NCBI GenBank assembly: GCA_001779195.1
Contig: MFJL01000014.1
Coordinates: forward strand, 9,522-73,521
DNA: 64,000 nt
Direction of reading: 5' to 3'
Source of the DNA: Candidatus Gottesmanbacteria bacterium RIFCSPHIGHO2_02_FULL_39_11
GTDB lineage: Bacteria; Patescibacteriota; Microgenomatia; 2-02-FULL-39-11
A program made the translations under genes and the position numbers. Positions 7,526-36,603 of the stretch are shown here, piece after piece. Under the pieces are notes generated by a model. That model saw only the letters and a program-made list of their open reading frames with translations. It did no database searches and had not been told where the DNA came from. Every line of letters starts with the position of its first letter. Positions within the stretch are counted from its first letter, which is position 1.

Positions 7526-7527
7526 AA

Positions 7528-20402: not shown

Positions 20403-21827
20403 TTATTCTTTCAGTCTTTTCTGAAAATAGGCTGACAAATTGCTTATTTTTATTCTCTGTTGAGTTGCGGTATCTCTTTCTCTTACCGTCACTGTCTCAT
20501 CCTCCAAACTTTGATAATCAATCGTCACACACCAGGGAGTTCCCACTTCATCCTGTGCAAAATATCTTTTTCCTATGTTTCCCCTGGCATCCCAGTTTGT
20601 TTTAATTCCTTGTTTTTTAAGTTTGTGATAAATTTCCCGGGCCTTTGATACAACATTTTCCTTATTGGCAATAAGAGGAAATACAGCAACTGTGTAAGGG
20701 GCGAGGCTTGGCTTAAGGGCAAGATAAATTCTATTACCGTCTTCCCGGTATCCATCGGCTAATATCATAAGAAAAATCCGGTTTATCCCGACCGCCGGCT
20801 CAATCACGTGGGGAATAAACTTTTTCCCGGAGACAGAATCCACATATTCCAAACTCATTCCTGAATGCTTCATATGCTGCTTCAGATCATAATCTGTCCG
20901 GTAGGCAATACCCCACAGTTCTTTCCATCCAAATGGAAATTCAAAATCCAAATCATACGTGTCGCGGCTATAATGACTTCTTTCCTTATCTGTATGCTGA
21001 CGAAACCGAAGTTTAGATTTATCTATACCTAATGTATCGGTTACAAACTTCCACATATCATCTTTCCACTTATTCATAAGGTTTTTCCACTCTGTCGTGT
21101 CCGGATCAAAAAAATACTCAATCTCCGCCTGCTCCAGCTCCAGAGTTCTAAATATAAATTGACCCGAGGTTATTTCATTTCTGAAAGATTTTCCAATTTG
21201 TCCGATCCCGAAAGGAAGTTTTACACGGCTTGAATCCAGAACATTTTTAAAGTTGGTAAAAATTCCCTGAGCTGTCTCTCCCCGCAGATAGAGGATTGAT
21301 TTTTCGCCTTCAACAACCCCCATTTTTGTTTCAAAAAGAAGATTGAATTTCTTAGGTTCTGTAATTTCATTCCCTTCCGGACTTTTAATCTTATTTTTTG
21401 CAATAAAAGTGGCCATCTCAATAACAAGCAAATTCTCAACCTTAAATCCCGGTTCAACACTTTCCGGATGCTTGCCTATCCACTCTTCTATCAAATGATC
21501 TGCCCGGTATCTTTTATGAGTTTTTTTGTCCTCAACAACCGGGTCTGTAAACGACGCAACATGTCCTGAGGCTATCCACGTGGTCGGATGAAGAAGAATC
21601 TGGGTATCAATCCCGACCATATCATCCCGATTGTTAATAAATGTCTCCCACCAGAGATTCCGTATGTTTCTCAAAAGCTCAGCTCCCATTGGGCCGTAGT
21701 CATATGAACTGGCCAGTCCTCCATATATTTCGCTTGTGGGATAAACAAACCCCCGTCTTTTACACAGAGATACAATTTTATCCATAAGATTTTCCATAAG
21801 TGGCGAAAAAACTTTTAATGACCTCAA
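20403..21827 (-). CDS. glyQS: Glycyl-tRNA synthetase, alpha2 (archaeal/eukaryotic-like GlyQS) type
   Basis: 474 aa class II aaRS. The N-terminus VSLCKRRGFVYPTSEIYGGLASSYDYGPMG is typical of homodimeric GlyRS. Confidence 0.9.
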   Translation of the reverse strand: MRSLKVFSPLMENLMDKIVSLCKRRGFVYPTSEIYGGLASSYDYGPMGAELLRNIRNLWWETFINNRDDMVGIDTQILLHPTTWIASGHVASFTDPVVEDKKTHKRYRADHLIEEWIGKHPESVEPGFKVENLLVIEMATFIAKNKIKSPEGNEITEPKKFNLLFETKMGVVEGEKSILYLRGETAQGIFTNFKNVLDSSRVKLPFGIGQIGKSFRNEITSGQFIFRTLELEQAEIEYFFDPDTTEWKNLMNKWKDDMWKFVTDTLGIDKSKLRFRQHTDKERSHYSRDTYDLDFEFPFGWKELWGIAYRTDYDLKQHMKHSGMSLEYVDSVSGKKFIPHVIEPAVGINRIFLMILADGYREDGNRIYLALKPSLAPYTVAVFPLIANKENVVSKAREIYHKLKKQGIKTNWDARGNIGKRYFAQDEVGTPWCVTIDYQSLEDETVTVRERDTATQQRIKISNLSAYFQKRLKE

Positions 21828-21847
21828 GTTTTTTTACTATAATAGTC

Positions 21848-22405
21848 TTAACTAACCCGTGTCAAGAGAGAACTGCTGGATAGGTTTCTCTCAAGTACTC
21901 CCCTTAGGTAGTTTTCCAACTCGTCTCCCGTCATTATTTTTCCCGGAGCTAAATATCCCATTTCCCTAAGAAAAGACAGGGAAAATTGTTCTGATATTGC
22001 CTGAGCCAGTTCCGGATTTTTATCCAGATCCTTAAAGGATCTTTCCAATAAATAAAAAACCGAAGGATATACTTCTTTCTCTGCACAGAGTTTATCAACG
22101 AGTTCAACCAAATGATAGGCATGTGCAACTACGGGGAGATTTGTTTTGAGACACGGATACGTTTCAACTGTCTGAGCTTCCGTAACAATTGAAAATGTTT
22201 TGCCACTCACAATATAGAGAGAAACTTTATTAAAAACTTCCATATGGGGAGATTTTCTGCTGGTAATCTTCCGTATACCTTTTGCTAAAACTACAAGTTT
22301 CCCGTGATATTTGGTAAAAATCGTGATGATCCGGTCCGCCTCACCGTAATTTTTTTTCTTCAGAATAAATCCCTCTGTTTTATAACTTCTTGCGCGGTAA
22401 CCCAT
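21848..22405 (-). CDS. recO: DNA repair protein RecO (short form)
   Basis: 185 aa with the N-terminal OB-fold region YKTEGFILKKKNYGEADRIITIFTKYHGKL. It is shorter than the typical ~250 aa. Confidence 0.6.
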   Translation of the reverse strand: MGYRARSYKTEGFILKKKNYGEADRIITIFTKYHGKLVVLAKGIRKITSRKSPHMEVFNKVSLYIVSGKTFSIVTEAQTVETYPCLKTNLPVVAHAYHLVELVDKLCAEKEVYPSVFYLLERSFKDLDKNPELAQAISEQFSLSFLREMGYLAPGKIMTGDELENYLRGVLERNLSSSSLLTRVS

Positions 22406-22419
22406 GAGGAAATAAAAAA

Positions 22420-24348
22420 TTAATACCTAAGCGTTAGCATCTGATCAGTCAGAAGTGGAATTTTAGCTTTTTCCCCTCCGTTAATAAGGACGGTATATTC
22501 AGGATTATCCGTTCCGGGCTGTTTCTGAATAAGAAGTTTATAGATACCGTTTTTTTGATCTATTTTAGGCAAATTATATTTAACAATTACCTCTGCAGAT
22601 CCCAAAGGTTTGACCGTCATAAAACCTTCAAAAACAGTTTTACCCAGTTCATCATACGTGACGGTTTCTTTTTCTGATCCTTTAAAATCAACTAACGTTG
22701 CGCCTTTTGGAACATACAGTCTTATCCAATTTCTCAGAATTCCGTTTAGACACAACTGACCGGCTTCCAAATTGCAGTTACTTGCTGGGGAGGGGTTTTT
22801 ATAGCTTATAGTTACTGTCTTGGTAGCTGTCCCATCGCCGTTTATTTGTATTTCGTCTTTAACGGACGTTTTTACAAAAAGGTTGGATTTAGCCCCTGCT
22901 AAATTTACATTGGATATATGAAGATAATCTCCCTCTCCCGACTTGATTCTTCCTCCAAAGTTAAGCGCCTCAATACCTTTTTGCGCATCGCGATTGTTAA
23001 AGTAAAAAAGTACATGCTTTTCTTGCGTTTCGTCCAAAAACGTCTGCATCAGAGGTCCCCAATATTTAGAAGGAGATACTCCTAATGCTCTTTGAAGAAT
23101 CTGGTACATGAGAACACTTATAATATCTTTTCTGTCTTCGCGAACATAATTTACTGGCCTGCTTGAATAGTCCTCGAGCTCATAAATTGCTTTTGGACAA
23201 TCGCACCGTTTATCAAGTACGGCTGAAAATGTCCGTCCGTATATAGTAAAGTCTCCCAGTATTTTTATTGTTGAAGCAAGAACATGGGTATCCAGAGCAA
23301 TTATTCCGTCATATTCGGGAAAACTAGGTACAGACTGGGAAACCATATCCGTAAACTGTTTCATGGATTCCTTGTAATCAGGTGAAAGATTACTATCCCG
23401 AAGCTCCAGATTGGTCACATTGATGTGGTATTTAAGTAAAGGACGTGGCGCGGGAAATTTTTTATTTTTGCTCTCATCTAGCTTGTAAATATCATCCGCT
23501 TTCTCAACTTTTAATTTTCCTTTATCAACACTAAATATCCCGTATGCCGTTATAAATCCCCCGGTTGCACGAAGTTCTGCGTCGTTTTGAAAAAGAATCA
23601 GGTATTTTTTACTCTCCCGCACACCCATAAGCTCGGGCAGTTTTTTAAGAAGAGGTTGTGCTTCTACAAAAAGGGATGCGGTACTCTTAAAAAGATCCTT
23701 GCCGGTTCTAAGCTGTTCCCGAACAACGGTATTTCCGATTTTTTCAGGATATTTATCTATATTTACCTGTTCAAGTTCGCGATCAGCAAGAGCTATTTTA
23801 CTTCCGATTTTGTCTACATTCGGAGTCATTTTATCCAATGTCTCAACCGCAGTTTTTATCCGGTCATCTGCGGATCCTGACACAAACGTGGACTTCCCCT
23901 TTAGCCCCAAAAGATCCGAGTAAGGCAGGATGGTCTCAACTGATATTTTTCCGGCTTGGGTGGTTGCAATACCCGCTTTTATAAAATGGTCGGCATCTCC
24001 TACATATCCCCCCAGGAAGGGTACTGCCCTTAGAAAAAGAATCTTATTTACATTTGTCTGCATGGTATTTAAACTGGTTTCCAGTTCTTTAAGTTTGGCA
24101 TCTGAGGTTACCAAATCCTGTGATTTAGCCGCCGCAGCAAGTTCTTTCCCGATTCGCGTGGTTTTTTGGGCGGAGAGATACAGTTCTTTGACCGGGGAAT
24201 AAATGACGACTCCTAAAACAAGCAGAAGAATTAAAAACAAACCCACAACGATACTGACCCATTTAATAATCGGATGATTTTTTTTGGATTTTACTTTTTT
24301 TCCCCTCTCGGTTTGAATTACATTTATTTTTTTAAATCCCGCACTCAT
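22420..24348 (-). CDS. Large N-terminally anchored extracytoplasmic protein, DUF4012-like
   Basis: 642 aa with one N-terminal TM (IIKWVSIVVGLFLILLLVLGVVIY) and a long extracytoplasmic domain. The family assignment is from memory and uncertain. Confidence 0.4.
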   Translation of the reverse strand: MSAGFKKINVIQTERGKKVKSKKNHPIIKWVSIVVGLFLILLLVLGVVIYSPVKELYLSAQKTTRIGKELAAAAKSQDLVTSDAKLKELETSLNTMQTNVNKILFLRAVPFLGGYVGDADHFIKAGIATTQAGKISVETILPYSDLLGLKGKSTFVSGSADDRIKTAVETLDKMTPNVDKIGSKIALADRELEQVNIDKYPEKIGNTVVREQLRTGKDLFKSTASLFVEAQPLLKKLPELMGVRESKKYLILFQNDAELRATGGFITAYGIFSVDKGKLKVEKADDIYKLDESKNKKFPAPRPLLKYHINVTNLELRDSNLSPDYKESMKQFTDMVSQSVPSFPEYDGIIALDTHVLASTIKILGDFTIYGRTFSAVLDKRCDCPKAIYELEDYSSRPVNYVREDRKDIISVLMYQILQRALGVSPSKYWGPLMQTFLDETQEKHVLFYFNNRDAQKGIEALNFGGRIKSGEGDYLHISNVNLAGAKSNLFVKTSVKDEIQINGDGTATKTVTISYKNPSPASNCNLEAGQLCLNGILRNWIRLYVPKGATLVDFKGSEKETVTYDELGKTVFEGFMTVKPLGSAEVIVKYNLPKIDQKNGIYKLLIQKQPGTDNPEYTVLINGGEKAKIPLLTDQMLTLRY

Positions 24349-24364
24349 ATAATATGTTGAGCTT

Positions 24365-25024
24365 TTACACGGCTCCCTTACCGCTAATCATTGCCCAAGG
24401 AGTTTTTAAAAGTATCTTAATATCATACCACATGGACCGTCGTTTTACGTAATCAGCATCCATCGCGATTCTTTTATCAAAATTTACTTCGCTTCGTCCG
24501 GATACCTGCCAATATCCGGTAATTCCGGGACGGATGGAAAGCACCTCGCCGACAAGCTCCCGTGTGTTGGGATATTTTTTTTGCTGATTTTCAAGTTCGT
24601 CCGGATAGTAAGCACGGGGTCCTACAATACTCATTTCCCCTCTTAATACGTTAATAAGTTGGGGAATCTCATCCAGAGAATGCCGTCTCATAATTTTTCC
24701 GATGACAGTTACCCGGGGATCTTCTTTTAATTTATAACTGTTTTTTTTGTACTGCTCATATAGATTTTTCATTTTGGGATCATTCCGCAAAATGGTATGA
24801 GCATGCTCGATCATGGAGCGGAATTTATACATCTTAAAAAGCTTCCCTTTTTTACCCACCCTCTCAGGGGTATCCGCAAATACGGGCCCCGGTGAATTAA
24901 GTTTGATGGCAACAGCCAGAAAAAGACCGATCGGAGAAAATAACAAAAGGAGAAGAGAGGCAACAGCAATATCTACCAGTCTTTTGAATGTGGAATCGTA
25001 GTTTTCACCGTGAAAAAGAACCAT
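24365..25024 (-). CDS. Polyprenyl-phosphate phosphoglycosyltransferase (small bacterial sugar transferase, PglC/WbaP C-domain type)
   Basis: 219 aa with one N-terminal TM and the motifs IVGPRAYYPDEL and PGITGYWQVSGRSEV. Confidence 0.8.
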   Translation of the reverse strand: MVLFHGENYDSTFKRLVDIAVASLLLLLFSPIGLFLAVAIKLNSPGPVFADTPERVGKKGKLFKMYKFRSMIEHAHTILRNDPKMKNLYEQYKKNSYKLKEDPRVTVIGKIMRRHSLDEIPQLINVLRGEMSIVGPRAYYPDELENQQKKYPNTRELVGEVLSIRPGITGYWQVSGRSEVNFDKRIAMDADYVKRRSMWYDIKILLKTPWAMISGKGAV

Positions 25025-25048
25025 TATAAGAATGTTTTTGAGAAATTT

Positions 25049-26131
25049 TTAAACGAGATTTTCATTTTCAGAGTCCGCAAGGTTTTCGACAAGCTTTTTT
25101 ATCTTAGGAACTGAGTTTTTATTGCATACCAGAACCACATCATGGGTATTAATAACAATATACCCATCCAGATCAATTGCAACTACCATTTGGTCAGTAT
25201 AGTTATACACAAGATCATCCTCACAATCCGTCAGAAGTACTTTTCCCCGCGTCACATTTTGGTTTGGAGAAGTCTGCAGAGCCTCTTTTAAGGCCTCCCA
25301 CGCACCTACATCGCTCCATCCTAAATCTTCTGAAAGAACAACAGCGTTTTGTGAATTAATTTTTTCAAGAATGGCGTTATCAAATGAGATTTTCTTAAGA
25401 GTTGGATAAATCTCCGCAAGAACTTTCTGGTAGTTATCAGTACCTACGCTTTCATATATCTTTTTAAGACCGAGAAACATTTCCGGCTGATGCGTCTGAA
25501 ATAGCTTCCAGATAAATGAGGGGGTAGTTACAAAATATCCCAGATTCCATGCATGATTTCCGCTTTTGAAATACTTTTCCGCATCAACCGGGTTTGGACG
25601 GTACGAAAAATTTTGAAATGAGTGAAAATTGAATCCGTTTATTTTAAATTCTGCGGCTCCGTACTCAATCCACCCCAGATTTTGGCTTGCAAACCGGGGA
25701 GACTGACTGATAAATATAATTTTGTCCGGATTTTGTTTTATGTATTCCTCCGAAACTTTCAGAATATTTTTAAATAGGTCGTTTTTCTTAATGAGGTGAT
25801 CGCTCCATAAAATTACCATCGGAGTTTTGGGGTCTTTTTTTAAGAGATTAGCAATTACTAAACCAACCGCCGGACCAACATCCCGCATGGCGGGCTCTCC
25901 GATGACGTTTTTGGGAGGAAGACTGGAAAGCTGAGAAGTAACCATGGACAGGTACCTCTCCCCGGTACCGATATAAATATCTTCCCACTTAAAATCAGGA
26001 AGAAGTCTCTCAACGGCAAGCTGGAGAGTTGATTTATCTCCAATCACCTTTTCAAATTGCTTAGGTGAATGGCGCCTTGAGAGAGGCCACAAACGGGTCC
26101 CTACCCCTCCCGCAAAAATAACTGCTTTCAT
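25049..26131 (-). CDS. manC: Mannose-1-phosphate guanylyltransferase (ManC/GMP-like nucleotidyltransferase)
   Basis: 360 aa with the N-terminus MKAVIFAGGVGTRLWPLSRRHSPKQF. Confidence 0.8.
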   Translation of the reverse strand: MKAVIFAGGVGTRLWPLSRRHSPKQFEKVIGDKSTLQLAVERLLPDFKWEDIYIGTGERYLSMVTSQLSSLPPKNVIGEPAMRDVGPAVGLVIANLLKKDPKTPMVILWSDHLIKKNDLFKNILKVSEEYIKQNPDKIIFISQSPRFASQNLGWIEYGAAEFKINGFNFHSFQNFSYRPNPVDAEKYFKSGNHAWNLGYFVTTPSFIWKLFQTHQPEMFLGLKKIYESVGTDNYQKVLAEIYPTLKKISFDNAILEKINSQNAVVLSEDLGWSDVGAWEALKEALQTSPNQNVTRGKVLLTDCEDDLVYNYTDQMVVAIDLDGYIVINTHDVVLVCNKNSVPKIKKLVENLADSENENLV

Positions 26132-26166
26132 ATTGCTATGCTCTGGTGAAAAAACTTTTAATAAAC

Positions 26167-27303
26167 CTAATTTTTTTTACTATCTTTCCTATAATTTTCG
26201 TAATTTAATTCAACCGTCTGCCTTATACGGGACTTAAATATAGTTTCTGCGAAACGGGCTGCACTGCCTCTGCAGTTTTCTGATGAATACTTTGCCGGGT
26301 TAAACCGTTTTAACTGAACTGCTAAATCACGCACATGGGCTGACTCGTACATTTCTCCTGTGACACCCGGTATTACGGTTTCCTCAAGTCCCCCCTTTTT
26401 GAGTCCCAAAACGGGTTTTCCGCAGCTTTGAGCCTCAACTGCTGTTATGCCAAAATCTTCTTCGCCGGGAAAAATGAGGCAAAGGCTATTTTGATAGTAC
26501 CAGGCAAGCTGTTCATCTGTCAAACGGTTCGTTAAAAATTGGATTGTCGGGCCGGCCCGTAACATAAGATGTCTTCGGTCAATCCCGTCCCCTATAATTA
26601 TAAGCTTCTTTTTAAGAATATTGCAGGCATCTATTGCATAATCTATTCTTTTATAGGGAACCAAACGGGAAACAATCAGAAAATAATCTTCTTTTCCAGA
26701 TTTAGGAGCGACGCTGAATTGCTGCGTATTAACCGGAGGATATACAACGCTGCTCTCTCTCTTGTAGTACTTTCTAATTCTTTGGGACACGGTTTGAGAA
26801 ATTGCGATATAAGAGTCAGGTCTCTGGGCATATATAAAATCGTTTCTTCTTTGGGAGGGAATCACCATTCTGAGTGCAGTACGCGCCAACGGATTTACAT
26901 AGGAAAAACCGGGCTTATCAACGTAGATTTCAAATCCGCTCCACAGATACCGCGTAGGAGTAAGACAGTAACAAATATGCAAAGTACCCGGTTTTGTAAC
27001 TATTCTCTTTCCGTATGAAGACGTGATTGAAATAACTATATTATATTCATCAAAAGAAAAAGATTCGGATGATAAGGGAGATAAAAATGAATAACAAGAA
27101 GGATGTGCTGAAGCAAAGGGAAGCGTTTGAACATAAGAGGGAATAATCTTAAGGGTGGATGTCCAGGGAGTATTTTTCTTGTTATATACTGTTGTAAAAA
27201 TAGGAGCATCCGGCCATATACTGGAAAGAGATGTCAAAATTCTCTCCGCTCCTCCGAATTTGGTAATTTTATCATAAAAAAAAGCAATTCTGTACGAACT
27301 CAT
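26167..27303 (-). CDS. Glycosyltransferase family 4 (GT-B)
   Basis: 378 aa with the N-terminus IAFFYDKITKFGGAER and the E-x7-E motif EDFGITAVEAQSCGKPV. Confidence 0.7.
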   Translation of the reverse strand: MSSYRIAFFYDKITKFGGAERILTSLSSIWPDAPIFTTVYNKKNTPWTSTLKIIPSYVQTLPFASAHPSCYSFLSPLSSESFSFDEYNIVISITSSYGKRIVTKPGTLHICYCLTPTRYLWSGFEIYVDKPGFSYVNPLARTALRMVIPSQRRNDFIYAQRPDSYIAISQTVSQRIRKYYKRESSVVYPPVNTQQFSVAPKSGKEDYFLIVSRLVPYKRIDYAIDACNILKKKLIIIGDGIDRRHLMLRAGPTIQFLTNRLTDEQLAWYYQNSLCLIFPGEEDFGITAVEAQSCGKPVLGLKKGGLEETVIPGVTGEMYESAHVRDLAVQLKRFNPAKYSSENCRGSAARFAETIFKSRIRQTVELNYENYRKDSKKN

Positions 27304-27312
27304 AATAAGGGG

Positions 27313-28449
27313 TTAACTTCCTGCAATCTGCTGGTAAATTTTAAGGGTTTGATGTGCGGTTTTTTTAAAACTGAATCTGTCAATATTTTTTTTAGCTTGA
27401 ATTACTCTTTTTTTATATTCCTCATCCTTCAGACTTAAAGCATTTTTTAATACCTGGGCCATGCTTTCCTTTTTACTTGGATCGAAATAGAGTAAATCAC
27501 CCTTCCAAATTTCGCGAAATACAGGAATGTCTGAAACAACGGGCAAAACACCACAGGAAAGCGCCTCAAATGTAGGAAGTCCGAATCCTTCCATAAGAGA
27601 AGGAAAAACCAAAAGCTTAGCATATTTATAAAGACTTAATAATTGAGAATCATTTGCAAGACCGTAAAAAATTACAGAATCCTGTAAAGATAATTTTTGT
27701 GCAAAGTGAGAAAGCCTTGGATAAAAAAAAGAGTCATCACCTGCAAGTACCAGCTTAATTTTTTTATTTTTAATAAGAAGTTTGAATGCTTCCAAAAGTT
27801 TTTCTAAATTTTTATGAGGATAGGCATTTCCGACATATAAGATATAGGGCATGGAGAAAATAGGTTTGACATTTTTTTGTGAGGAGACTAATGATTTAAA
27901 ATGCTCATCAAGAGCATCATAAGTAACCTCAATTTTGGATGGATTGACTCCGTAATGATCCATAACCTCTTTTTTTGTAGTTTCAGAGATAGTAGTAATA
28001 AAACTTGCATTTCTGATTCCCTGAGAAAGAGAGACTTGGTATCCAAATCTTTTAAGCCGGTACAAAGGATACGCAAGTGTACTTGCCCGCCCGGTATTAA
28101 AATGATCCAAAATAAGGTCATGAATTGTCAAAAGATATCTCCCGCGATAAAAAATAGGCACGTTAAAATAAGGAAAATGAGCAACTGTTACTTTATCTTT
28201 TTTTAAAACGCTTGGAATAACTATCTGTTCTTTAACTCCGTGCCAGGGAAGGTCAACAAGACGTTTAACAAACTGAGATGAAGGAGGAACAAATTCTTCA
28301 AATTCCTTTTTCCGAAGATATATGTAATATTCATTACCTGAAGGAATTTTAGATAATTCCAGTATCAGGTTTCTGATATATCTTCCCACTCCCGTTTGAT
28401 AATAAAGTCTCGAGTCAATTCCGATTCTCATTCCTCTATTATAGTTCAC
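27313..28449 (-). CDS. Glycosyltransferase family 4 (GT-B)
   Basis: 378 aa with the E-x7-E motif MEGFGLPTFEALSCGVLPVVSD. Confidence 0.8.
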   Translation of the reverse strand: MNYNRGMRIGIDSRLYYQTGVGRYIRNLILELSKIPSGNEYYIYLRKKEFEEFVPPSSQFVKRLVDLPWHGVKEQIVIPSVLKKDKVTVAHFPYFNVPIFYRGRYLLTIHDLILDHFNTGRASTLAYPLYRLKRFGYQVSLSQGIRNASFITTISETTKKEVMDHYGVNPSKIEVTYDALDEHFKSLVSSQKNVKPIFSMPYILYVGNAYPHKNLEKLLEAFKLLIKNKKIKLVLAGDDSFFYPRLSHFAQKLSLQDSVIFYGLANDSQLLSLYKYAKLLVFPSLMEGFGLPTFEALSCGVLPVVSDIPVFREIWKGDLLYFDPSKKESMAQVLKNALSLKDEEYKKRVIQAKKNIDRFSFKKTAHQTLKIYQQIAGS

Positions 28450-29702
28450 TTCAGCATATGATCAATCTGATGGGCTAATTTCATCTGGAGAGAATATATT
28501 TCAGTAAACCCGGCACTGGCGTTAACGTTAAACCGATAACCCCCTGTATTGGTAAATGAAGTATGAGCAAGTCCAAAGGGTGATTTTATCGCAACTACGC
28601 TAACGCATCCCTTAAAAAGTCTGACAGTAACTTCTCCTGTTACTTTTTTATTGACAAAGTCGCAAAAAGCATTGATTGAATCCATAATAGGATCATACCA
28701 GAGAGCTCCATAACAGAGATACCCCCATCTGATATCCATCTGAGATTTTAACTCGTTTAACCGCATGGTACAGACATATTTCTCAAGAGCCTTATGTGCT
28801 TCGATGATGACGTGAGCTGCCGGAAGTTCATATACTCCTCCGTTTTTCAACCCTATTAATCTGTCCTCGACCATATGGACAACTCCGACCCCGTGTCTTC
28901 CTGCAACAGTATTCAGGTTCATAATAAGCTTACTAAGGGAAAGATTTTTTCCGTTTAACCTAACCGGGATACCCTTTTCAAATGTAAGTTTTATCAGTTC
29001 TTCCTTATCGGGAGCATTTTTAGGAAGAGTATAGGTTGTCAAAAACTTCTCAACCGGAGAAATTATTTCAGGCTCCTCAATCTCCCCTCCTTCCCAAGTC
29101 ATGCCCCACATATTATCATCAACGCTGTATGGAAAATCTATACTCGCCGGAACCGGGATATGGTGGTTTTTGGCATATGCAATCTCTTCATTTCTGTCCA
29201 TATTCCATTCCCTGACAGGCGCAATAATTTTCATATTAGGATTAAGAGTTAAAATATATCCTTCAATTCTTACCTGATCATTTCCTTTTCCGGTACACCC
29301 ATGAGCTATGCAGTCGGCGCCTTCATGAATACCTACTTCTACTGCTTTTTTTGCCAAAATTGCCCGTCCCATGGGAGTAGAAAGATGGTAATCTCCCTGG
29401 TAGCTTGCATTTGCTTTAATTCCTTTGGATAAATACTCATTCGCAAACTCTTCTCTAACATCCAGTGTAATTGCTTTAACCGCTCCTAATTTTAGAGCTT
29501 TTTTCTTTATTTTTTCTAAATCATCATGCTGTTGACCTAAATTAAGCGTGAGAGCAATAATCTCGGGGGTGTAATGATCGGAAATCCATCTCAGCATTAC
29601 ACTCGTATCCAATCCCCCTGAATACAGAAGTAAAACTTTTTTAACGTCACTGACTTTTGCTTCGTAAGAAGCAACTTTCACATACTTAGTTTTTTCTCTC
29701 AT
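28446..29702 (-). CDS. argG: Argininosuccinate synthase
   Basis: 418 aa with the N-terminal PP-loop KVLLLYSGGLDTSVMLRWI. Confidence 0.9.
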   Translation of the reverse strand: MREKTKYVKVASYEAKVSDVKKVLLLYSGGLDTSVMLRWISDHYTPEIIALTLNLGQQHDDLEKIKKKALKLGAVKAITLDVREEFANEYLSKGIKANASYQGDYHLSTPMGRAILAKKAVEVGIHEGADCIAHGCTGKGNDQVRIEGYILTLNPNMKIIAPVREWNMDRNEEIAYAKNHHIPVPASIDFPYSVDDNMWGMTWEGGEIEEPEIISPVEKFLTTYTLPKNAPDKEELIKLTFEKGIPVRLNGKNLSLSKLIMNLNTVAGRHGVGVVHMVEDRLIGLKNGGVYELPAAHVIIEAHKALEKYVCTMRLNELKSQMDIRWGYLCYGALWYDPIMDSINAFCDFVNKKVTGEVTVRLFKGCVSVVAIKSPFGLAHTSFTNTGGYRFNVNASAGFTEIYSLQMKLAHQIDHMLK

Positions 29703-31050
29703 AAGAGACTCCCAGTTTTTTTAAAATGTTTAAATAATAGTTGTGTTTTTCTTTCCACCAAATTTTACTTTTCTGTGCATTTTTTCTCGCTTTTTTTAAC
29801 ATAAGATTTCCTGTGCCTCCCAGGTGGGTTGATAACTTTATAATTTCCGCTGGATCAAACAGAGGAAGACTACCCAAAGACTTTCCGATTTTTTTATAAG
29901 CGTCCCTAAAGGGCATCCCCTTTTTTACCAGCAAATAAGAAGCATGCACTGCAAAAATTTCAGGCGTGAAAGACTTTTTCAGCATCTGTGTATTCGGTTC
30001 AATTGAATTAATAACTAATTTGCATATGCTTAGCGCATCTTTAACCATTTCAATGCTTTTTATGAAAGGATATTTAGTCTCTGCAAAATCTCCCTGATAT
30101 CCTGAGGGCAATCCGGCAATAATTCCCGCAATACTTTGCTCAAAGGAAATAACAACATGAGTTCTGGCTCTTAAACTCTCCAGAACATCCAAATTTTTCT
30201 TTTGAGGCATGATGCTGGATCCAGTTGATAATGTTTTATCAACATTAAAAAAATTAAATTCGCTTGTTGTAAAAAGAAGAATATCGGAAGCAAACCGGGA
30301 TAGTGTCAGCATAATCTGAAGTGCTGCATGCATAACAATCAAATGAGATTTACCCCGGGAACTTCCCGCATACAAGCTGTTGCTTTGAACCCGTTTAAAT
30401 CCTAAAAGTTTTGCGGTCAATTCTCTATCCAGCACCAAGGGAACACCATAAGAAGCAGCTGATCCCAAAGGAGACTGGTCATTAATTATAAATGCGCATT
30501 TAAGCATGTTCAGATCGTCAGTCAAGCTTTCTGCAAAACTCCCCGACCACATTCCGACTGAGGAGGGCATTGCCTTCTGCATATGAGTGTATCCGGGCAT
30601 GGGAACAAGCTTATATTTATCTGCAAAATCTAAAAAAGAAGAAACTAGTCTATGGCATAAAAATGAAATCTTAAACAGGTTTTCTTTTGTAAAAAGCCTA
30701 AGATCGGTAAGTACCTGGTCGTTTCTGCTTCTGCCTGTGTGGATTTTCTTGCCTAAATCACCTAGCTTTGAGACTAAATAATTTTCAACTTTTGTATGTA
30801 CATCCTCATCGCCCAATTCAACTTTAAACTTTCTCTTTTTCTCGAGTTTTATTATCTCAATAAGAGCATGTTTCAGCTTTTTAAATTCCTCTTTTGTCAG
30901 AACATCTATTTGACAAAGCATTTGAGCATGAGAAATTGATCCTAAGACATCAGGAACAATAAGTACATTATCCAAAAGCGCTGTATCGCCGAAACAATAC
31001 GTTTCAGCCAATTTATTCTGTGAGTAGTCTTTTTGCCATAATTTTTCCAT
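29686..31050 (-). CDS. argH: Argininosuccinate lyase
   Basis: 454 aa with the fumarate-lyase signature GSSIMPQKKN, TGRSRNDQV and an ArgH-like N-terminus (KLWQKDYS...DVLGSISHAQML). Confidence 0.9.
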   Translation of the reverse strand: MEKLWQKDYSQNKLAETYCFGDTALLDNVLIVPDVLGSISHAQMLCQIDVLTKEEFKKLKHALIEIIKLEKKRKFKVELGDEDVHTKVENYLVSKLGDLGKKIHTGRSRNDQVLTDLRLFTKENLFKISFLCHRLVSSFLDFADKYKLVPMPGYTHMQKAMPSSVGMWSGSFAESLTDDLNMLKCAFIINDQSPLGSAASYGVPLVLDRELTAKLLGFKRVQSNSLYAGSSRGKSHLIVMHAALQIMLTLSRFASDILLFTTSEFNFFNVDKTLSTGSSIMPQKKNLDVLESLRARTHVVISFEQSIAGIIAGLPSGYQGDFAETKYPFIKSIEMVKDALSICKLVINSIEPNTQMLKKSFTPEIFAVHASYLLVKKGMPFRDAYKKIGKSLGSLPLFDPAEIIKLSTHLGGTGNLMLKKARKNAQKSKIWWKEKHNYYLNILKKLGVSYERKN

Positions 31051-31100
31051 AAAAAAAGCCCCTTCCGCCTTTCATCAGAAGATGAAAGACTGATAGGGGC
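31051..31100 (-). terminator. Intrinsic terminator of the T-box leader, abutting the argH ATG
   Basis: GCCCCT...AGGGGC stem with an internal 8-bp CTTTCATC/GATGAAAG helix, followed by TTTTTTT (plus-strand A7 at 31051-31057) immediately before ATG at 31050. Confidence 0.65.
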
Positions 31101-31345
31101 GATTAATAAACCGCGGTACCACCCTGTTTCTTTTATCCCATTAAAAAATCCGCCCTGTGGCGGATGCAAACTCGTTTGAGATAAAACTCATTCAAGCGCT
31201 CCGTTTCCGACACGCTTTGTCTTATTTGTACGGTTGACTTCCGTCGTAGTTATTCCTTCGACTTTGCTCAGGATTTTTCCTACGCAGCGTTTCGACATTC
31301 GTGCCGAATCATCTACTGCGGTAGACTTATACGCTTTTGCAATAT
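31051..31345 (-). promoter_or_regulatory. T-box riboswitch leader (tRNA-sensing antitermination) upstream of argH-argG
   Basis: The minus-strand sequence AGGGTGGTACCGCGG (31111-31125) matches the T-box consensus AGGGUGGNACCGCG. The antiterminator 3' strand CGCCCCT overlaps the 5' strand of the terminator hairpin. A stem-III-like hairpin lies at 31148-31165. The segment is GC-rich and about 295 nt long. Confidence 0.7.
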
Positions 31346-31351
31346 GAAATT

Positions 31352-31379
31352 AGTATACATCCTTTTGATAAAAAATCAA
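31352..31379 (-). promoter_or_regulatory. Predicted promoter for the T-box leader / argHG operon
   Basis: On the minus strand TTGATT (31374-31379), a 16-bp spacer and TATACT (31352-31357). It overlaps the stop codon of the upstream GT2 gene. Confidence 0.4.
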
Positions 31380-32278
31380 ATTTTGAAAAGTGAAACCAAT
31401 CTTTTAAACTCAATTGCACCAAGGATTAACCCTTTAACCCACCATGGGTATCTCTTCTGATAATGTTTTTTGTAAAATATTTTCATCACATCAAACCGGG
31501 CATTTGTGGCTTTTATCTTTGTCTCACGTGTTACGTTTGATAGGTCTATGGAATGCTTTTTTATCCCACTGCTCACTCCTTTATAATGCAGAATGGATAC
31601 CTGAGGAATATAGATAATTTTGCCTCCTTTTTCTTTTATGCGAAAGCAGAAATCCAAATCCTCCCCATACCAGAAATAGTCTTCATCCAGCCACCCAACT
31701 CTTTCCCCTGCGCTTCTTCTGATTAGAAGACATGCTCCTACTCCGCTGTCAATTTCATGAACTTTGTCTAAGTCTTTATACCCTAAATGATATCCATTTA
31801 ATAAATTACTATTTGGAAATAGTTTGCTAATCCCTAAAAAGTGGCAGAATGCATTCCATGGAGTAGGAAATCCTCTATGAGATGCATCATCCATCTGACC
31901 ATTTAGCAATACTATTTTAGGCGTTACAACAGCAACATCTGAATGACTGTCCAGATAGGAAACTAATGTTTCAATCGTTTTATCACTAATTACCGTATCA
32001 GGATTTAGAAGAAGAACGTAGTCTCCTTTTGATTTTTTTATAAGAATGTTGTTCGCTTTTGCAAATCCTACATTTATATCGCTTTGAAATACTTCTATAT
32101 CCTTAAAAGTTTTTTTAATGTAATCAAAACTTCCATCTGTTGAGGCATTATCCATTACTAAAATTTCGTACGTTAAATTATTAGGAATGCTTTTTTTAAG
32201 CGAGTCAACGCATTCCTTTATAAGGTTTTTAGAATTAAACGCAACTATAATAATAGATAATTTAAGATTTTTTGCCAT
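31376..32278 (-). CDS. Glycosyltransferase family 2 (GT-A)
   Basis: LSIIIVAFNSKN, DNASTDGS and a DxD-type GT2 fold. The start is adjusted to the internal ATG at 32276-32278 (MAKNLKLSII); the track ORF extends to 32368. Confidence 0.75.
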   Translation of the reverse strand: MAKNLKLSIIIVAFNSKNLIKECVDSLKKSIPNNLTYEILVMDNASTDGSFDYIKKTFKDIEVFQSDINVGFAKANNILIKKSKGDYVLLLNPDTVISDKTIETLVSYLDSHSDVAVVTPKIVLLNGQMDDASHRGFPTPWNAFCHFLGISKLFPNSNLLNGYHLGYKDLDKVHEIDSGVGACLLIRRSAGERVGWLDEDYFWYGEDLDFCFRIKEKGGKIIYIPQVSILHYKGVSSGIKKHSIDLSNVTRETKIKATNARFDVMKIFYKKHYQKRYPWWVKGLILGAIEFKRLVSLFKI

Positions 32279-33458
32279 AATATGCCCCTTCATAAATTCG
32301 ATCCAGATGTGAGGCAATTGTTTTCCAATTGAAGTTTTTTTCAACAAATGCCCGTCCTTCATAGGCAAGTCTTTCTGATAATTTGGGATTGGTTAAGACT
32401 TGAATTGTTTTATGAGCAAGTTCCTCAGGTGTCTCACCAATTAATGCATTTTTCCCGTCAACGGCGTTTAATCCTTCAATCCCAATTGATGTTGTGACGA
32501 CAGGAAGTCCGGATGCCATGGATTCAAGTATTTTATACCGGGTACCTCCCGGGCCGTATATGGGGGCAAGCATTACATCGGCGTTTGAGTATGCATCCGT
32601 AATGTTTTTAATATCAGATGAGACTTTGACCCAATCTGATTCATATTTTTTAAGAGACTCGGGAGCTGATCTTCCGACAATCCAGAGATTTGCCTGGGGC
32701 ATTTCCTTTCTTATAAGCGGCCATATTTTCTGCAAAAGTATCTCAACTGCCTCCCGGTTTTGAAGCCACTTAAACTGACCTACAAAAAGAATTGTTTTTT
32801 TCTTTCCGGTATTTTTTTTGCGGTTTATTTTGAAAAATTGGGCATCCACTCCATTGGGAACTAAATCAACGTTAATTCCCGGAACTAAATCCTCCATTAT
32901 TTTTTTATCAGCTTCAGACATAGCAACTACTCTTTTTGCATCTTTCCAGTATTTTTTTTCAAAATATCTGATTTTTAAGACATCAAAAAGCATGAGTATT
33001 TTTACAGGTAAAAATGTTACGGTTTCCGTATAGTGTTTATACACCAGATATTCAATGGTTTGTTCCACGAGAATTGTCGGCGTTGTGGTTTTTGGGATAT
33101 TGGGAAGCACATAAAATGTCTCAGCGTGGATAAGATCAAACCTCTTATTTTCAACAAGCTTGGCAATCTGAGATCTGACACTTCTTCTAAGATACAGACA
33201 TACAACCAAGGGATAAATGCTGATTGCTGACAATACCAGACTTTTTAACGACCACGGTTTCCTTTTTTGAAAAACATAAACACTTTCACAAAATTTCCTC
33301 AGCTCCTCTATATATTTTTTTTCACTATCATCCCGGATAAAAGAAACAAGGGTAATATGATGTTTGTGGGAAAGATTCTTCAGAAGATTGTATGTCCGTA
33401 TCTGGCCTCCGGAATACAACGGATAGGGCAAATAGGGAGTAAGCATCAGTATCTTCAT
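32262..33458 (-). CDS. Glycosyltransferase family 4 (GT-B)
   Basis: 398 aa with the E-x7-E motif ESMASGLPVVTTSIGIEGL. Confidence 0.8.
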   Translation of the reverse strand: MKILMLTPYLPYPLYSGGQIRTYNLLKNLSHKHHITLVSFIRDDSEKKYIEELRKFCESVYVFQKRKPWSLKSLVLSAISIYPLVVCLYLRRSVRSQIAKLVENKRFDLIHAETFYVLPNIPKTTTPTILVEQTIEYLVYKHYTETVTFLPVKILMLFDVLKIRYFEKKYWKDAKRVVAMSEADKKIMEDLVPGINVDLVPNGVDAQFFKINRKKNTGKKKTILFVGQFKWLQNREAVEILLQKIWPLIRKEMPQANLWIVGRSAPESLKKYESDWVKVSSDIKNITDAYSNADVMLAPIYGPGGTRYKILESMASGLPVVTTSIGIEGLNAVDGKNALIGETPEELAHKTIQVLTNPKLSERLAYEGRAFVEKNFNWKTIASHLDRIYEGAYYGKKS

Positions 33459-33459
33459 A

Positions 33460-36400
33460 CTATCTTTGGGGAAGATCTTTATCCGGTACTAATTGAATAA
33501 GAATATAGTTAGGCAACTCCTGAATAATTTTATATCCTTTTGTGCTTTCTTTATTCAGAGCTTCTCTCATGAGCTGCTGGGTCACATCATCATAATTTAG
33601 GGATACATAATAATCAGCTCCCTTTTTAACAAGGCTGTCAATTGGCTCGGTGAGAACAGGCCATCCCCACCGGTGGGTCTGGTATAAAAACGCGGTATCT
33701 CCATTATAGGGAGCAACCACAAGCGCTTTATCCGGAGTGTATTTTTCAACAGCCAAGCCTGCTTCAATAATTTCAGGATGATTGATATTGTAATAGTCTT
33801 TAATAAAATACCATCCGAACATCAGCATAAAAATAAAACATATCAAAACAAAGGGATAGACAAAAACCCTATTAAATATCTTTCCTGCATGATCCAGAAG
33901 AAAAACTACTCCCTTAGCGGCAAAAATACATAGAATAGGCACTATAAATATCTGATAATAATCATGCCTTACATTTCCCGTTGCAATAACAACAAGATAC
34001 AAAAGTGCTCCGAGTCCCCATATATGAAAAACCCATCCTTCCTTCGGTTTTTTAAACAGGAGTCCCAGAGAAACAAAAACAACGCCCCAGTAGCCCAGAA
34101 TAAGTCTTCCAATTCGGTCTGCAAATATCCAGTAAAACCAGGCACCTTTGAACCGAATTCCGTCTCCGTTTAAAAGCCAAGTATATGCCGGGACTCCTTC
34201 AGGGAAATTGGCAACCCATTTTCTCCATAAGAGAAGTGGAATAAGTGTCGCAAAAAGCGCAATTCCGATTGCAAGCAACGTTGAAAAAGAAAGCTTAAGT
34301 CTTCTGATAAATACATATATAACAACAGGATATAAAAAGAGTGAGATGGGCTTAATTAAAGCAGCTCCGGATGCAAAGAGAAGGGCTAAAATGCCCGTTA
34401 ATATTAATTTAAGAATGATCCTTTTTTCTCTTTTTCCCTTACTGAATAAGGCAAGATGTATGGCAAATGTATCAAAGAAATAAATCATTCCGACAGATAA
34501 AGAAGCCAAAAGGGGTTCGGGCAAAATGACACGGCTGAAAAAAATATTGTATGGAATAACCGCAAAAAATATGGCAGTTAAAACCGATTCGCGTCTTCCT
34601 AAGAATCGTCTGGCAATAAGAAAAAGAAATATAATAGAGAGCAGGCTTGCAAATATGGAAGTCAGACGGCCTGAAATTTCAATCGTGTAACCGACAAAAA
34701 TCTTGTCCGTGACAGTTGAAAAAAAGTTGTACAAAGGAAATTCTACCATCCGGTATCCGTTGGGATTGTCCTTTCCGGATGCTACATTTGAAAGGTCATG
34801 GTAGGTAGGATACAAAAGATTAATTCCGTTTCTGACAAAACTGCGCGTTACCGAGGAAGTATCTGCCTGCCTCCATGAATGCCAGTCAGCAATAGGAGAA
34901 GTGATTTTATAAAGCCTGACGAAAAAAGCTAAGCCTAAAATAACCAGAAGAATAAATAAGTCCCCTTTTATAAAATGAAGAATACGGACCCTCGTACCTA
35001 TAAAAAATTCCGAGAGATCAGGAATGGAAGGCTTATCAACAGGACCTTTATGATCTTTTTTTAGAATCATAAGAGCAGAGAGGATAATTCCGCTTATTGC
35101 CCAAAACGTAAATGCGACTTTGGATGAAACAAATACATCAATATAAACTGCATTTGCAAAAAGCCCCATTGAAAGTCCGATAAATCCTGCAAAAAGAGAG
35201 AAAAATATAGGATCCTGCGCCACTTTAAGGTTTCTCCACACCAGATACATAGCTACGATGACGGTTCCGTAAAAAGCTACAAATCCCAAGATTCCCGTCT
35301 CCCCCAAGGTTCTAAGATAATCATTGTCGGTTGATTCCGCATCGGTAAAATCAGTAACATTTTGCTTATTAAGAGTTGCGTATCCGCTCCCCAGCAGGGG
35401 ATCCCGTTTAAATCCCGCAATAGCCATAGGCCAAAGTGCATCCAGACGTATCGCGGTTGAAAGATCATATCGAAACGCGGTGTTGGAATAGGTTCTATTT
35501 GTTGGAGTTAATACAGAACTGTCTGTAGCTGTTGGAATCAAAAGAGGGACATCCTCGTATACATCGCTCGGCCGACGGAGTGAAGGAGGCATATCACTCT
35601 TTGAGGTAATCTGAGATATGATATCGGAATTATTTTCAAGAAAAAGAGCGTTTTGAGTAGGCCTTTGAGCAAGAGGAGACATAAAAAGTGACTTGATATT
35701 TCCCAGTCTTTCATCCAACTTTAACAGTTTAGTAAACCGTTCAGACAGGTCCCCAAAAGACAGCATAAGAACAATAGATAAGGTAATCACCCCTATCCAC
35801 CGTGCTACCGACCATGCAATCCCCTTCCGATATGCCCATATGAAAAACATAAAAGTCAGTCCTCCCAGATAGGCAAGAAAAGAGATTCGAGAGGCAGTAA
35901 GTATTAGAGTCCAAAAAGCTGCTCCTATAATTACAAAAACACCAGCTCGTAAGTACCACCTCTTTACTGCAAAAAATAGACTCCACAAGAGAATAAGCAC
36001 CATCATGATAAAAGCCGCAAGATCATAGTGACCTCCGAATGTTGAGAGAACCCGGGCATGTTCCGTAAGATACAAAACCCAGCCCTTAGAAAACTCCCGA
36101 TTCATAGTAGAAAAAGCCGGCCAATATAGATATTTTTGACCAAACCCATACACTGCTACACACACAACAGTAGCTAGAAGAATTCCGATTAATATTTTCA
36201 CCTGCTTGAGATTTCTAATCGACGAAAAAAGAATAAAAAACAGTGAAAAATACTCAATACGTCTGAGGTAATGAAGAACCATTTTGCCGATATGTAGAGT
36301 CTGTAAAGGAACTGTTTGGATGACAAAAACAGCCGTAATCATGGTCAAAAACCCGAAAGTAAGATAAATTAAAATTGGTTTAAACAGGGGATAGTCAGAT

Positions 36401-36603
36401 AGCTTTGTTTTTCCCCGAATGAGGTAGAAAAGCCAGAGTAAAATCGCAAAACTTACTATAAAATCCTCAATTCTTACTCGGACTATATATCCGGGAAGAG
36501 CATCTAAAAGAGGAAGCTTAGGCATAAGAGGAATAAAAGCGATCAAAAACGCCGAGAAGGCAAATAAGAGATGGCTATCCAGCCACTTCAAAAGCTTTAT
36601 CAT
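33460..36603 (-). CDS. Fusion membrane protein: N-terminal Wzy_C/O-antigen ligase-like domain plus C-terminal ArnT/PMT-like GT-C glycosyltransferase (GT39/GT83-like)
   Basis: 1047 aa with more than 20 predicted TM segments. The N-half carries the O-antigen ligase/polymerase signature ...DNDYLRTLGETGILGFVAFYG. The C-half carries an ArnT/YkcB-like first loop (HSWRQADTSSV) and GT-C topology. Confidence 0.6.
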   Translation of the reverse strand: MIKLLKWLDSHLLFAFSAFLIAFIPLMPKLPLLDALPGYIVRVRIEDFIVSFAILLWLFYLIRGKTKLSDYPLFKPILIYLTFGFLTMITAVFVIQTVPLQTLHIGKMVLHYLRRIEYFSLFFILFSSIRNLKQVKILIGILLATVVCVAVYGFGQKYLYWPAFSTMNREFSKGWVLYLTEHARVLSTFGGHYDLAAFIMMVLILLWSLFFAVKRWYLRAGVFVIIGAAFWTLILTASRISFLAYLGGLTFMFFIWAYRKGIAWSVARWIGVITLSIVLMLSFGDLSERFTKLLKLDERLGNIKSLFMSPLAQRPTQNALFLENNSDIISQITSKSDMPPSLRRPSDVYEDVPLLIPTATDSSVLTPTNRTYSNTAFRYDLSTAIRLDALWPMAIAGFKRDPLLGSGYATLNKQNVTDFTDAESTDNDYLRTLGETGILGFVAFYGTVIVAMYLVWRNLKVAQDPIFFSLFAGFIGLSMGLFANAVYIDVFVSSKVAFTFWAISGIILSALMILKKDHKGPVDKPSIPDLSEFFIGTRVRILHFIKGDLFILLVILGLAFFVRLYKITSPIADWHSWRQADTSSVTRSFVRNGINLLYPTYHDLSNVASGKDNPNGYRMVEFPLYNFFSTVTDKIFVGYTIEISGRLTSIFASLLSIIFLFLIARRFLGRRESVLTAIFFAVIPYNIFFSRVILPEPLLASLSVGMIYFFDTFAIHLALFSKGKREKRIILKLILTGILALLFASGAALIKPISLFLYPVVIYVFIRRLKLSFSTLLAIGIALFATLIPLLLWRKWVANFPEGVPAYTWLLNGDGIRFKGAWFYWIFADRIGRLILGYWGVVFVSLGLLFKKPKEGWVFHIWGLGALLYLVVIATGNVRHDYYQIFIVPILCIFAAKGVVFLLDHAGKIFNRVFVYPFVLICFIFMLMFGWYFIKDYYNINHPEIIEAGLAVEKYTPDKALVVAPYNGDTAFLYQTHRWGWPVLTEPIDSLVKKGADYYVSLNYDDVTQQLMREALNKESTKGYKIIQELPNYILIQLVPDKDLPQR

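Follow-up and report, generated by a model that had tools for sequence, protein, structure and literature searches.

A predicted tRNA-Arg-responsive T-box leader with an ultrashort Stem I upstream of argH-argG in a Gottesmanbacteria genome

The T-box is the model system in which tRNA charging is sensed by RNA-RNA interaction, and bacteria of the candidate phyla radiation (CPR) have minimal genomes with few known regulators. In a 64,000-nt stretch of contig MFJL01000014.1 from Candidatus Gottesmanbacteria bacterium RIFCSPHIGHO2_02_FULL_39_11 (hereafter the window), the genes encoding argininosuccinate lyase (argH) and argininosuccinate synthase (argG) lie on the minus strand behind a 325-nt leader. 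A preliminary description of the sequence had read this leader as a T-box riboswitch with a textbook antiterminator and had left its specifier codon unassigned. The Rfam T-box model RF00230 gave no match at its gathering score anywhere in the 64-kb window. What kind of element is this leader, and which tRNA would it read?

The comparison with relatives described below makes it very probable that the leader is a T-box responding to tRNA-Arg, that it controls argH-argG chiefly through attenuation of transcription, and that its decoding module is of the Class III type. That the element belongs to a terminator-coupled, short-Stem-I T-box lineage of CPR bacteria, missed by the Rfam threshold, is well supported. 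Coordinates given without an L-number are those of the window, and L-numbers are locus labels of related contigs or loci. Profile searches identified both genes at equivalog level. ArgH, encoded by the first regulated gene (29686-31050, minus strand), matched Pfam Lyase_1 and NCBIfam TIGR00838 (310.9 bits versus a cut-off of 279.5), and argG (28446-29702, minus strand), the conserved partner of argH, overlaps it by 17 nt.

The T-box switch and its relatives

The leader occupies the gap between the stop codon of a glycosyltransferase family 2 (GT2) gene (31376) and the ATG of argH (31050), and examination of its minus strand located each part of the switch that had been named in the preliminary description. 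The T-box sequence AGGGTGGTACCGCGG (= AGGGUGGUACCGCGG) lies at 31125-31111, with the core AGGGUGGUACCGCG at 31125-31112. The antiterminator (31095-31125) is made of helix A1, in which AGGG 31125-31122 pairs with CCCU 31098-31095, and helix A2, in which GCG 31114-31112 pairs with CGC 31101-31099; between them is the 7-nt bulge UGGUACC at 31121-31115. Both helices covary among 104 leaders. The intrinsic terminator (31051-31100) is a stable G+C-rich hairpin with its stem at 31100-31058, followed by seven U residues at 31057-31051 that directly abut the argH ATG. Since the strand GCCCCU 31100-31095 is common to the antiterminator, as its 3' strand, and the terminator, as its 5' strand, the two folds are mutually exclusive. 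The energies calculated with ViennaRNA were -8.5 kcal/mol for the antiterminator versus -26.8 kcal/mol for the terminator, and with the terminator predicted to be so much the stronger, the switch would be OFF by default, as a T-box should be. The 301-nt leader folded better than 100 of 100 shuffled sequences (z = -4.3).

A permissive search with RF00230 returned 35.3 bits against the gathering score of 93 (E = 3e-6), short of the threshold match by which the preliminary description had proposed to check its T-box. The alignment was good over Stem III and the antiterminator, while its Stem I part ran into the promoter, contained many non-pairs and is spurious. The gathering score was not reached because Stem I in this leader is not long and does not enclose an internal specifier loop. 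As the Rfam criterion had literally failed, the question was settled by comparison with relatives.

The ArgH protein was found to be identical on six metagenome contigs. Its nearest other relatives, at no more than 63% identity, are in metagenome-assembled genomes (MAGs) of Roizman-, Levy-, Gottesman-, Woese- and Daviesbacteria, all of the Microgenomates-group CPR/Patescibacteria. A T-box core was present upstream of 30 of 80 related argH loci; the earlier remark that T-box control of argG and argH is rare does not hold for this group, and such control of argH is already known from Clostridioides difficile (PMC7438776). The RF00230 threshold was passed by one of 19 scanned argH loci (L082), and six short-Stem-I relatives scored 34-52 bits. 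Because the Rfam model at its gathering score misses the short-Stem-I members tested, namely this leader and those six relatives, riboswitch censuses of CPR bacteria are probably too low. A search with a pattern that covered two conserved blocks yielded more than 119 metagenome loci, about 103 of which are genuine AT-rich leaders, mostly from Microgenomates-type CPR. Most members are not upstream of argH, and the short-Stem-I leader is therefore a general leader type. Many of the MAG records (L007-L086, Third Party Annotation (TPA) assemblies) are titled 'uncultured Gammaproteobacteria bacterium' and carry Microgenomates-typical ArgH and leaders; these names look like placeholders.

Covariation was analyzed in an alignment of 39 leaders of the tetraloop hairpin type, this leader included. 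Predicted partners were paired in 91.7% of the cells, compared to 27-44% with slid partners; 21 of 31 pairs had changed on both sides, and none of the five measures was reached by any shuffle. A covariance model was then built from 34 relatives with this leader left out. It gave a single match in the 64 kb, at 31336-31194 on the minus strand, with 88.5 bits (E = 5e-24) and with Stem I aligned. Together with the equivalog-level identities of both genes, this match upholds the earlier recognition of a T-box upstream of argH-argG. An automatic hairpin listing was too noisy for the classification of Stem I, and anchored extraction was used instead.

The terminator recurs throughout the family. A U-run is found downstream of the antiterminator in 102 of 104 related leaders, and the median terminator energy was -27.7 kcal/mol in the 72 leaders having a well-defined hairpin and U-run. 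In the leader studied here, a Shine-Dalgarno (SD)-like sequence, GGAAGGGG, lies within the 3' strand of the terminator, 8 nt before the argH ATG. Because the start codon abuts the U-run, this strand holds the only SD-like sequence (AAGGGG/GGAGG) at that place; it must also resemble an SD sequence because it is paired with the CCCU/CCUU of helix A1. The layout raises the question of whether control is exerted mainly or only on translation, as in the short-Stem-I T-boxes of Actinobacteria, with the supposed terminator serving as an SD sequestrator that is freed by tRNA. A start codon abutting the terminator (31048-31069, minus strand, in the window) is seen again in about ten relatives, including L049, L064, L066, L098, L123, L181, L190 and L195. 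However, a stable hairpin followed by a U-run is the signature of an intrinsic terminator, and many of the 102 leaders with a U-run have a start codon with an SD of its own well downstream. SD-like motifs precede only 6 of the 35 open reading frames (ORFs) of the window, a count that is uninformative because the start codons were uncorrected. We consider mainly translational control unlikely, and attenuation of transcription the preferred mode. The two modes are not exclusive, and judging from the position of the buried SD-like sequence in the terminator 3' strand, an additional translational effect, and thereby a combined transcriptional and translational control, is possible.

Upstream of the T-box sequence, Stem III (31131-31186, minus strand; fold energy -18.4 kcal/mol) was recovered in the Rfam alignment, with an outer helix of UUUUAUC 31186-31180 and GAUAAAA 31137-31131. 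Its apex (31143-31165) is a terminator-like hairpin, AUCCGCC-ACAG-GGCGGAU, of 7 bp, five of them G-C, with a U-run at 31148-31143. The hairpin at 31165-31148 had previously been noted as stem-III-like; it exists, and proves to be the apex of a larger Stem III, terminator- or pause-like in combination with a T6 run that had gone unmentioned. An apical hairpin with a U-run is present in 99 of 108 family leaders, its stems covary, and it may act as a pause signal or terminator ahead of the discriminator. In the family, the hairpin is G+C-rich, often has a GNRA loop, and is followed by U5-7 some 25-35 nt before the T-box sequence. The idea that hairpin and U-run compensate for a missing contact with the tRNA elbow is not supported by their distribution. 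Since they are also present in 10 of 11 long-Stem-I members, they are not a specific substitute for that contact.

The decoding module

Across the family, the elements of the leader follow one another in the order AAGC-NUUUGA, short hairpin, (G/A)AGC, Stem II, IIA/B pseudoknot, GNRA-loop hairpin, Stem III, T-box and terminator. In the leader upstream of argH-argG, the Stem I region is closed by a basal helix, or C-stem (31286-31335, minus strand), of AGCGU 31335-31331 and ACGCU 31290-31286, which was found in the minimum free energy fold and by covariation. The basal-helix pair at columns 2-51 occurs as AU (20), UA (7), GU (4) and GC (2), and GC/GC is near-invariant. By this helix lies a junction that reads UAUAA/GA, as compared to a kink-turn (K-turn)-like UUUGA/GA in most relatives. 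An 18-nt insert hairpin, UUCGGCA-CGAA-UGUCGAA (31291-31308, minus strand), separates Stem I from Stem II; it is lineage-specific and missing in most relatives, where the alignment shows an insertion, and unrelated inserts occupy the same site in L049, L201, L073 and L177.

A junction without the G of the GA motif, and an 18-nt insert beside it, might be taken as marks of a decaying relic that has lost its regulation, with argH-argG transcribed by read-through from the upstream glycan genes, which are co-directional and have no terminator before the leader. Yet every helix is intact, as are specifier, terminator and T-box bulge; a non-G base at the junction is also seen in about 15% of relatives, and several have inserts at the same site. 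The leader is also identical in six independent metagenome contigs, which possibly represent one population. We regard a relic as very unlikely.

Within the basal helix stands an ultrashort Stem I of 16 nt and 6 bp (31311-31326, minus strand), in which GUCUAC 31326-31321 pairs with GUAGAU 31316-31311 beneath an apical tetraloop, CGCA 31320-31317. This hairpin was 100% paired in the 39 aligned sequences, with compensatory changes at all six pairs. [quoted passage not shown] The assumption of a canonical Class I T-box with long Stem I, internal specifier loop and elbow platform, whose low Rfam score would reflect divergence, would be consistent with the end-to-end alignment of RF00230 (E = 3e-6) and with CPR leaders of the same family, such as L082 (97.8 bits) and L134 (98.3 bits), that combine the GNRA hairpin with a long Stem I and exceed the gathering score. 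It is nonetheless hardly credible for the leader studied here: in the Rfam alignment, Stem I reaches into the promoter and consists largely of bases that do not pair, the roughly 60 nt from the likely start to Stem II are all used by the 16-nt hairpin, the basal helix and the insert, and the leader has neither an AG bulge nor distal loop motifs. A long Stem I formed by pairing CUACCGCAG with CUGCGUAG was also rejected, the relatives showing two separate covarying helices instead.

Upstream of orthologous argH genes in CPR bacteria, Stem I ranges from the canonical long form to several ultrashort forms, with AGA, CGA or CGC as specifiers. Three argH leaders have a long Stem I (L082, L072 and L035); L019 and L059 have a GAUGA...UGAGC K-turn and a hairpin with the loop UCGAA/UCGAG; and L018, L008 and L063 have an extra CACGUCGC-UAAAGCUAUG element. 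This range is a natural series in which the truncation of Stem I can be followed.

Stem II (31245-31284, minus strand) comprises a lower helix, CGUAG 31284-31280 with CUACG 31249-31245, and an upper helix, UCC 31273-31271 with GGA 31256-31254. Compensatory changes were observed at five core pairs of the lower helix and at all three pairs of the upper. The internal loop between them is purine-rich, GAAAAA 31279-31274 opposite AUAA 31253-31250, and its adenines are invariant or nearly so. A role of Stem II is inferred, and it may form an S-turn. It is followed by the Stem IIA/B pseudoknot (31219-31243, minus strand), whose IIA helix pairs CGG 31243-31241 with CCG 31233-31231 and whose IIB helix pairs the loop bases GUC 31238-31236 with GAC 31221-31219. 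Compensatory changes occur at all three IIB pairs (GUC/GAC, GUU/AAC, GGAU/AUCC, GCA/UGC). Between the pseudoknot and Stem III lies the GNRA-loop hairpin AGCGUGUCGG-AAA-CGGAGCGCU (31195-31216, minus strand), an insertion relative to RF00230. Its pair at columns 125-145, a position unconstrained by the search pattern, switches between CG and UA. In the form AAGCGUGUCGG-GNRA-CGGAGCGCUU, with internal U-G pairs and one G-A mismatch, this hairpin is nearly invariant; it is common to short- and long-Stem-I members of the CPR family and stands outside the Rfam T-box consensus.

Specifier, tRNA match and proposed mechanism

The codon that the preliminary description could not place is now assigned: as judged from the concordance of leader triplets with downstream genes, the specifier is CGC (Arg) at 31320-31318, in the apical loop of Stem I, followed by the conserved purine A31317 (minus strand). 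Across the family leaders, the apical loop always consists of a pyrimidine, the triplet and a purine. It occurs as the tetraloop CGC-A in 42 unique leaders, as the hexa- or heptaloop GU-CGC-G(A) in 24, as the heptaloop U-CCC-G, U-CCU-A or U-CCU-G in 16, and as the tetraloop CCU-A in three, with a pentaloop U-CGA-A in some genome leaders. The loop is thus 4 nt in this leader and 5-8 nt in relatives (UCGAA, GUCGCG(A), UUUCCCG). In the alignment, C17 and A20 are invariant, and G18 and C19 vary only to CU, in Pro-type leaders.

The triplets sort with the genes that follow them. CGC was found before all 16 members of the ArgH cluster, before ArgG in L196 (identified by eye from the translation) and before ornithine carbamoyltransferase (OTCase) in L142. 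CCN was found in eight of eight leaders of an amino-acid-kinase (ProB-like) cluster and before pyrroline-5-carboxylate (P5C) reductase (proC), ornithine cyclodeaminase and an ArgZ-like enzyme; CCU, in the same tetraloop hairpin type as in this leader, precedes the prolyl-tRNA synthetase gene proS in L145. The association of triplet and downstream gene had a Fisher p of 2e-8 with relatedness ignored. The T-box bulge is always UGGU in Pro-type leaders, and UGGU or UGGC in Arg-type leaders.

Genes for tRNA-Arg adjoin four Arg-type leaders on other CPR contigs, and one of them has the anticodon GCG, the perfect partner of CGC. The UGGU bulge had been taken to predict a tRNA with discriminator base A73, in agreement with the A73 found in all four tRNA-Arg genes read, which match the UGGU of their own leaders. 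Among the Arg codons of this genome, CGC is a minor one (8%), in accord with the preference for C-ending specifiers in Arg T-boxes, the 'C-rule', reported by TBDB (PMC7778990). That the specifier instead lies in the internal loop of Stem II, whose purine-rich 5' strand reads AAA (Lys) here and AGA (Arg) in most relatives, has next to no chance of being right: cmscan puts GGAAAAAUCC on the RF00230 specifier region and most Arg-type tetraloop leaders read N-AGA-AA there, but this leader and L131 read GAAAAA and yet precede argH and tRNA-Arg(GCG), the ProRS-linked L145 also reads GAAAAA, heptaloop leaders with a different Stem II still switch their apical CGC/CCN by downstream gene, and the segment has a covarying helix on either side, as an internal loop of Stem II should.

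In the mechanism that we propose for the CGC-specified leader, the basal helix and junction would carry the 6-bp hairpin, whose tetraloop would present CGC and the purine to the anticodon (GCG or ICG) of tRNA-Arg. The leader is predicted to bind this tRNA with no distal Stem I platform for contact with the tRNA elbow. The discriminator, composed of Stem III, the UGGU bulge and helices A1 and A2, would pair with the ACCA 3' end of uncharged tRNA and so stabilize the weak antiterminator. Charging of tRNA-Arg would leave the much stronger terminator to form, and transcription would stop at the seven U residues just before the argH ATG.

Several points weigh against this reading. In addition to the low RF00230 score, no tRNA gene was found in the 64-kb window, the tRNA-Arg evidence coming from other CPR contigs. 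The junction has AA where most relatives have the GA of the K-turn, and with the key G absent, a K-turn is doubtful in this leader; Stem II is without the canonical AGUA/GAA sequence of an S-turn. A 4-nt loop closed by a covarying pair needs its top pair or pairs to be opened in order to present three bases. They probably do open, which would create a C-CGC-A-G loop resembling the heptaloop GU-CGC-GA. The loops of known Class III T-boxes have 5-6 nt (PMC10482949), a range outside of which the tetraloop lies, and on kinetic grounds, T-boxes coupled to a terminator have been argued to require contact with the elbow (PMC7583486).

Class III T-boxes are known from the ileS leaders of Nocardia farcinica and Mycobacterium tuberculosis (PDB 6UFM, 6UFG; PMC10482949, PMC7583486). 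In the N. farcinica element, which is Stem II-dependent, Stem I is short and without an elbow platform, and the apical loop that carries the specifier is a penta- or hexanucleotide. Its Stem I is joined to Stem II by a K-turn, and an S-turn of Stem II touches the codon-anticodon helix (PMC10482949). In the leader described here, Stem I is likewise short and lacks the interdigitated T-loop platform (IDTM); the specifier is in the apical loop, nearly as far from the 5' end, and a conserved purine comes after it. A basal junction connects to Stem II, and three linker bases pair with the loop of the IIA/B pseudoknot. The leader also has a discriminator of Stem III, a UGGN bulge and helices A1/A2. 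It differs in that its expression platform is an intrinsic terminator (hairpin and U7) and not a pure SD sequestrator, in keeping with which it stands apart from the statement that Class III and IV 'mostly regulate translation initiation' (PMC10482949). Further differences are its specificity for Arg (Pro in relatives) versus Ile, its biosynthetic target genes (even tRNA genes in relatives) versus ileS, its host, a CPR bacterium versus an Actinobacterium, and its tetraloop (hepta-, hexa- and pentaloops in relatives) versus penta- and hexaloops. The GNRA hairpin after the pseudoknot and the terminator-like hairpin with U-run in Stem III are extra, and the sequences at the K-turn and S-turn positions are not canonical.

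With Class I T-boxes (RF00230; Bacillus subtilis tyrS), the leader shares the T-box AGGGUGGUACCGCG, the antiterminator/terminator switch, Stem II with IIA/B, Stem III and the attenuation of amino-acid genes. Unlike them, it has no long Stem I, internal specifier loop, AG bulge or distal loop. A wider Arg T-box regulon in C. difficile was reportedly described by Vitreschak et al. in 2008. The Arg T-boxes of Firmicutes (argS leaders and the C. difficile argH leader, PMC7438776) resemble the present leader in Arg specificity and argH control; those are described as standard long-leader T-boxes, in contrast to the short Stem I and CPR genome here. A truncated-Stem-I model has been applied beyond Actinobacteria in TBDB (PMC7778990). 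We found no paper linking T-boxes to CPR bacteria in a literature search of incomplete coverage.

In the accepted picture, a short Stem I without elbow contact goes with slow, reversible translational control in Actinobacteria, and a long Stem I with fast, one-shot transcriptional control. If the CPR lineage is as we read it, it embodies a combination that current kinetic arguments say should work poorly, and more than 100 terminator-coupled short-Stem-I T-boxes would be natural test cases for a transcriptional decision made without elbow contact. It would also bring RNA-based amino-acid sensing in CPR bacteria to the last two steps of arginine synthesis. A more far-reaching proposal is that these leaders form a large, hitherto undescribed lineage, that it couples a Class III module to termination, that the Stem III hairpin and U-run are a programmed RNA polymerase pause allowing the tRNA to bind, and that the lineage also puts cognate tRNA-Arg and tRNA-Tyr genes under T-box control. 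We offer it tentatively, and lean somewhat against its holding as a whole.

Extent of the regulated unit and other loci

A promoter-like site (31352-31379, minus strand) consisting of TTGATT 31379-31374, a 16-nt spacer and TATACT 31357-31352 overlaps the GT2 stop codon and matches the consensus at 9 of 12 positions. The site had been called a promoter earlier; it is present, and such matches are not enriched around the leader, where three were found versus 4.9 expected from shuffles. In related leaders, a promoter of the TTGACA type is found equally far upstream of the conserved AAGC start; for the leader studied here, the transcription start is a putative one. The G+C content of the leader is indeed higher than that of its flanks (0.42-0.45 versus 0.33-0.39), a modest difference and not the marked one first described.

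The same transcript had been thought to continue into glycan genes, recO and the glycyl-tRNA synthetase (GlyRS) gene. The adjacency of argH and argG is kept in most of about 80 relatives compared, and in none of these was the pair linked to the GT2 gene upstream or to the downstream genes encoding two GT4 glycosyltransferases, a ManC-like protein, a sugar transferase, a DUF4012 protein, RecO and GlyRS. A conserved operon of argH-argG with the glycan genes, recO and glyRS is not supported, given this lack of linkage, and the conserved regulated unit, as defined by gene order, is argH-argG only. Because they are linked to these neighbors in no relative, argH-argG and the leader look like an insertion into a glycan cluster. 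Sites resembling promoters lie before the GT4 gene (10 of 12 positions) and the GlyRS gene (11 of 12; 21865-21836), such matches being at chance frequency. No convincing terminator was found 3' of argG, and read-through past argG into the glycan genes may occur for that reason; transcription of the glycan genes, recO and glyRS from the argH-argG leader is possible but unsupported. The glycan-synthesis cluster around argH-argG extends over 20403-36603 on the minus strand, with a Wzy_C/PMT_2 fusion, GT4 and GT2 upstream, and GT4, GT4, ManC-like, sugar transferase and DUF4012 genes downstream. A 642-aa ORF that may earlier have been taken for glyRS encodes the DUF4012 protein, and GlyRS is encoded by the next-but-one ORF (20403-21827). 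The RecO of the window is unusually short, at 185 aa.

In several relatives, a T-box leader with a terminator is followed 1-45 nt downstream on the same strand by cognate tRNA genes and then by an ORF. These leader sites are L131 6110-5768 (-), L130 1198-1609 (+), L102 540-236 (-), L136 2912-2608 (-), L134 5425-5019 (-) and L119 5547-5301 (-). Arg-type (CGC) leaders stand upstream of tRNA-Arg with the anticodons GCG (L131), UCU and UCG (L130 and L136) or UCU (L102), and long-Stem-I leaders with UAC at the specifier stand upstream of tRNA-Tyr GUA in L134 (98.3 bits, passing the Rfam threshold) and L119. To our knowledge, T-box control of tRNA genes has not been described. The logic of such loci is odd, as uncharged tRNA would lead to more tRNA.

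Arg-type (CGC) leaders were also often found upstream of proteins with no or weak Pfam matches. These include proteins of about 190-260 aa (L103, L112, L117, L173, L177, L189 and L192), of about 330-346 aa (L096, L166 and L188), of 109 aa (L090 and L198) and of 460-481 aa with a HAD domain (L111 and L115), an M42 peptidase (L123), and those of L127, L130 and L147. Their position behind CGC leaders suggests that these CPR proteins may have arginine-related roles in uptake, salvage or peptide degradation, and the concordance of specifier and gene could be used to propose Arg- or Pro-related roles for several unknown families of proteins behind such leaders.

On the contig of L205, which also has an Arg-type leader, ARAGORN reported a 91-nt 'tRNA-Stop' with the anticodon UUA at 7513-7603 (+), either a suppressor or recoding tRNA or a false call. 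In L145, an ORF of 82 aa (about 68 aa from an ATG at 7869) with no family match lies at 7826-8074 (+), between the Pro-type T-box terminator and proS.

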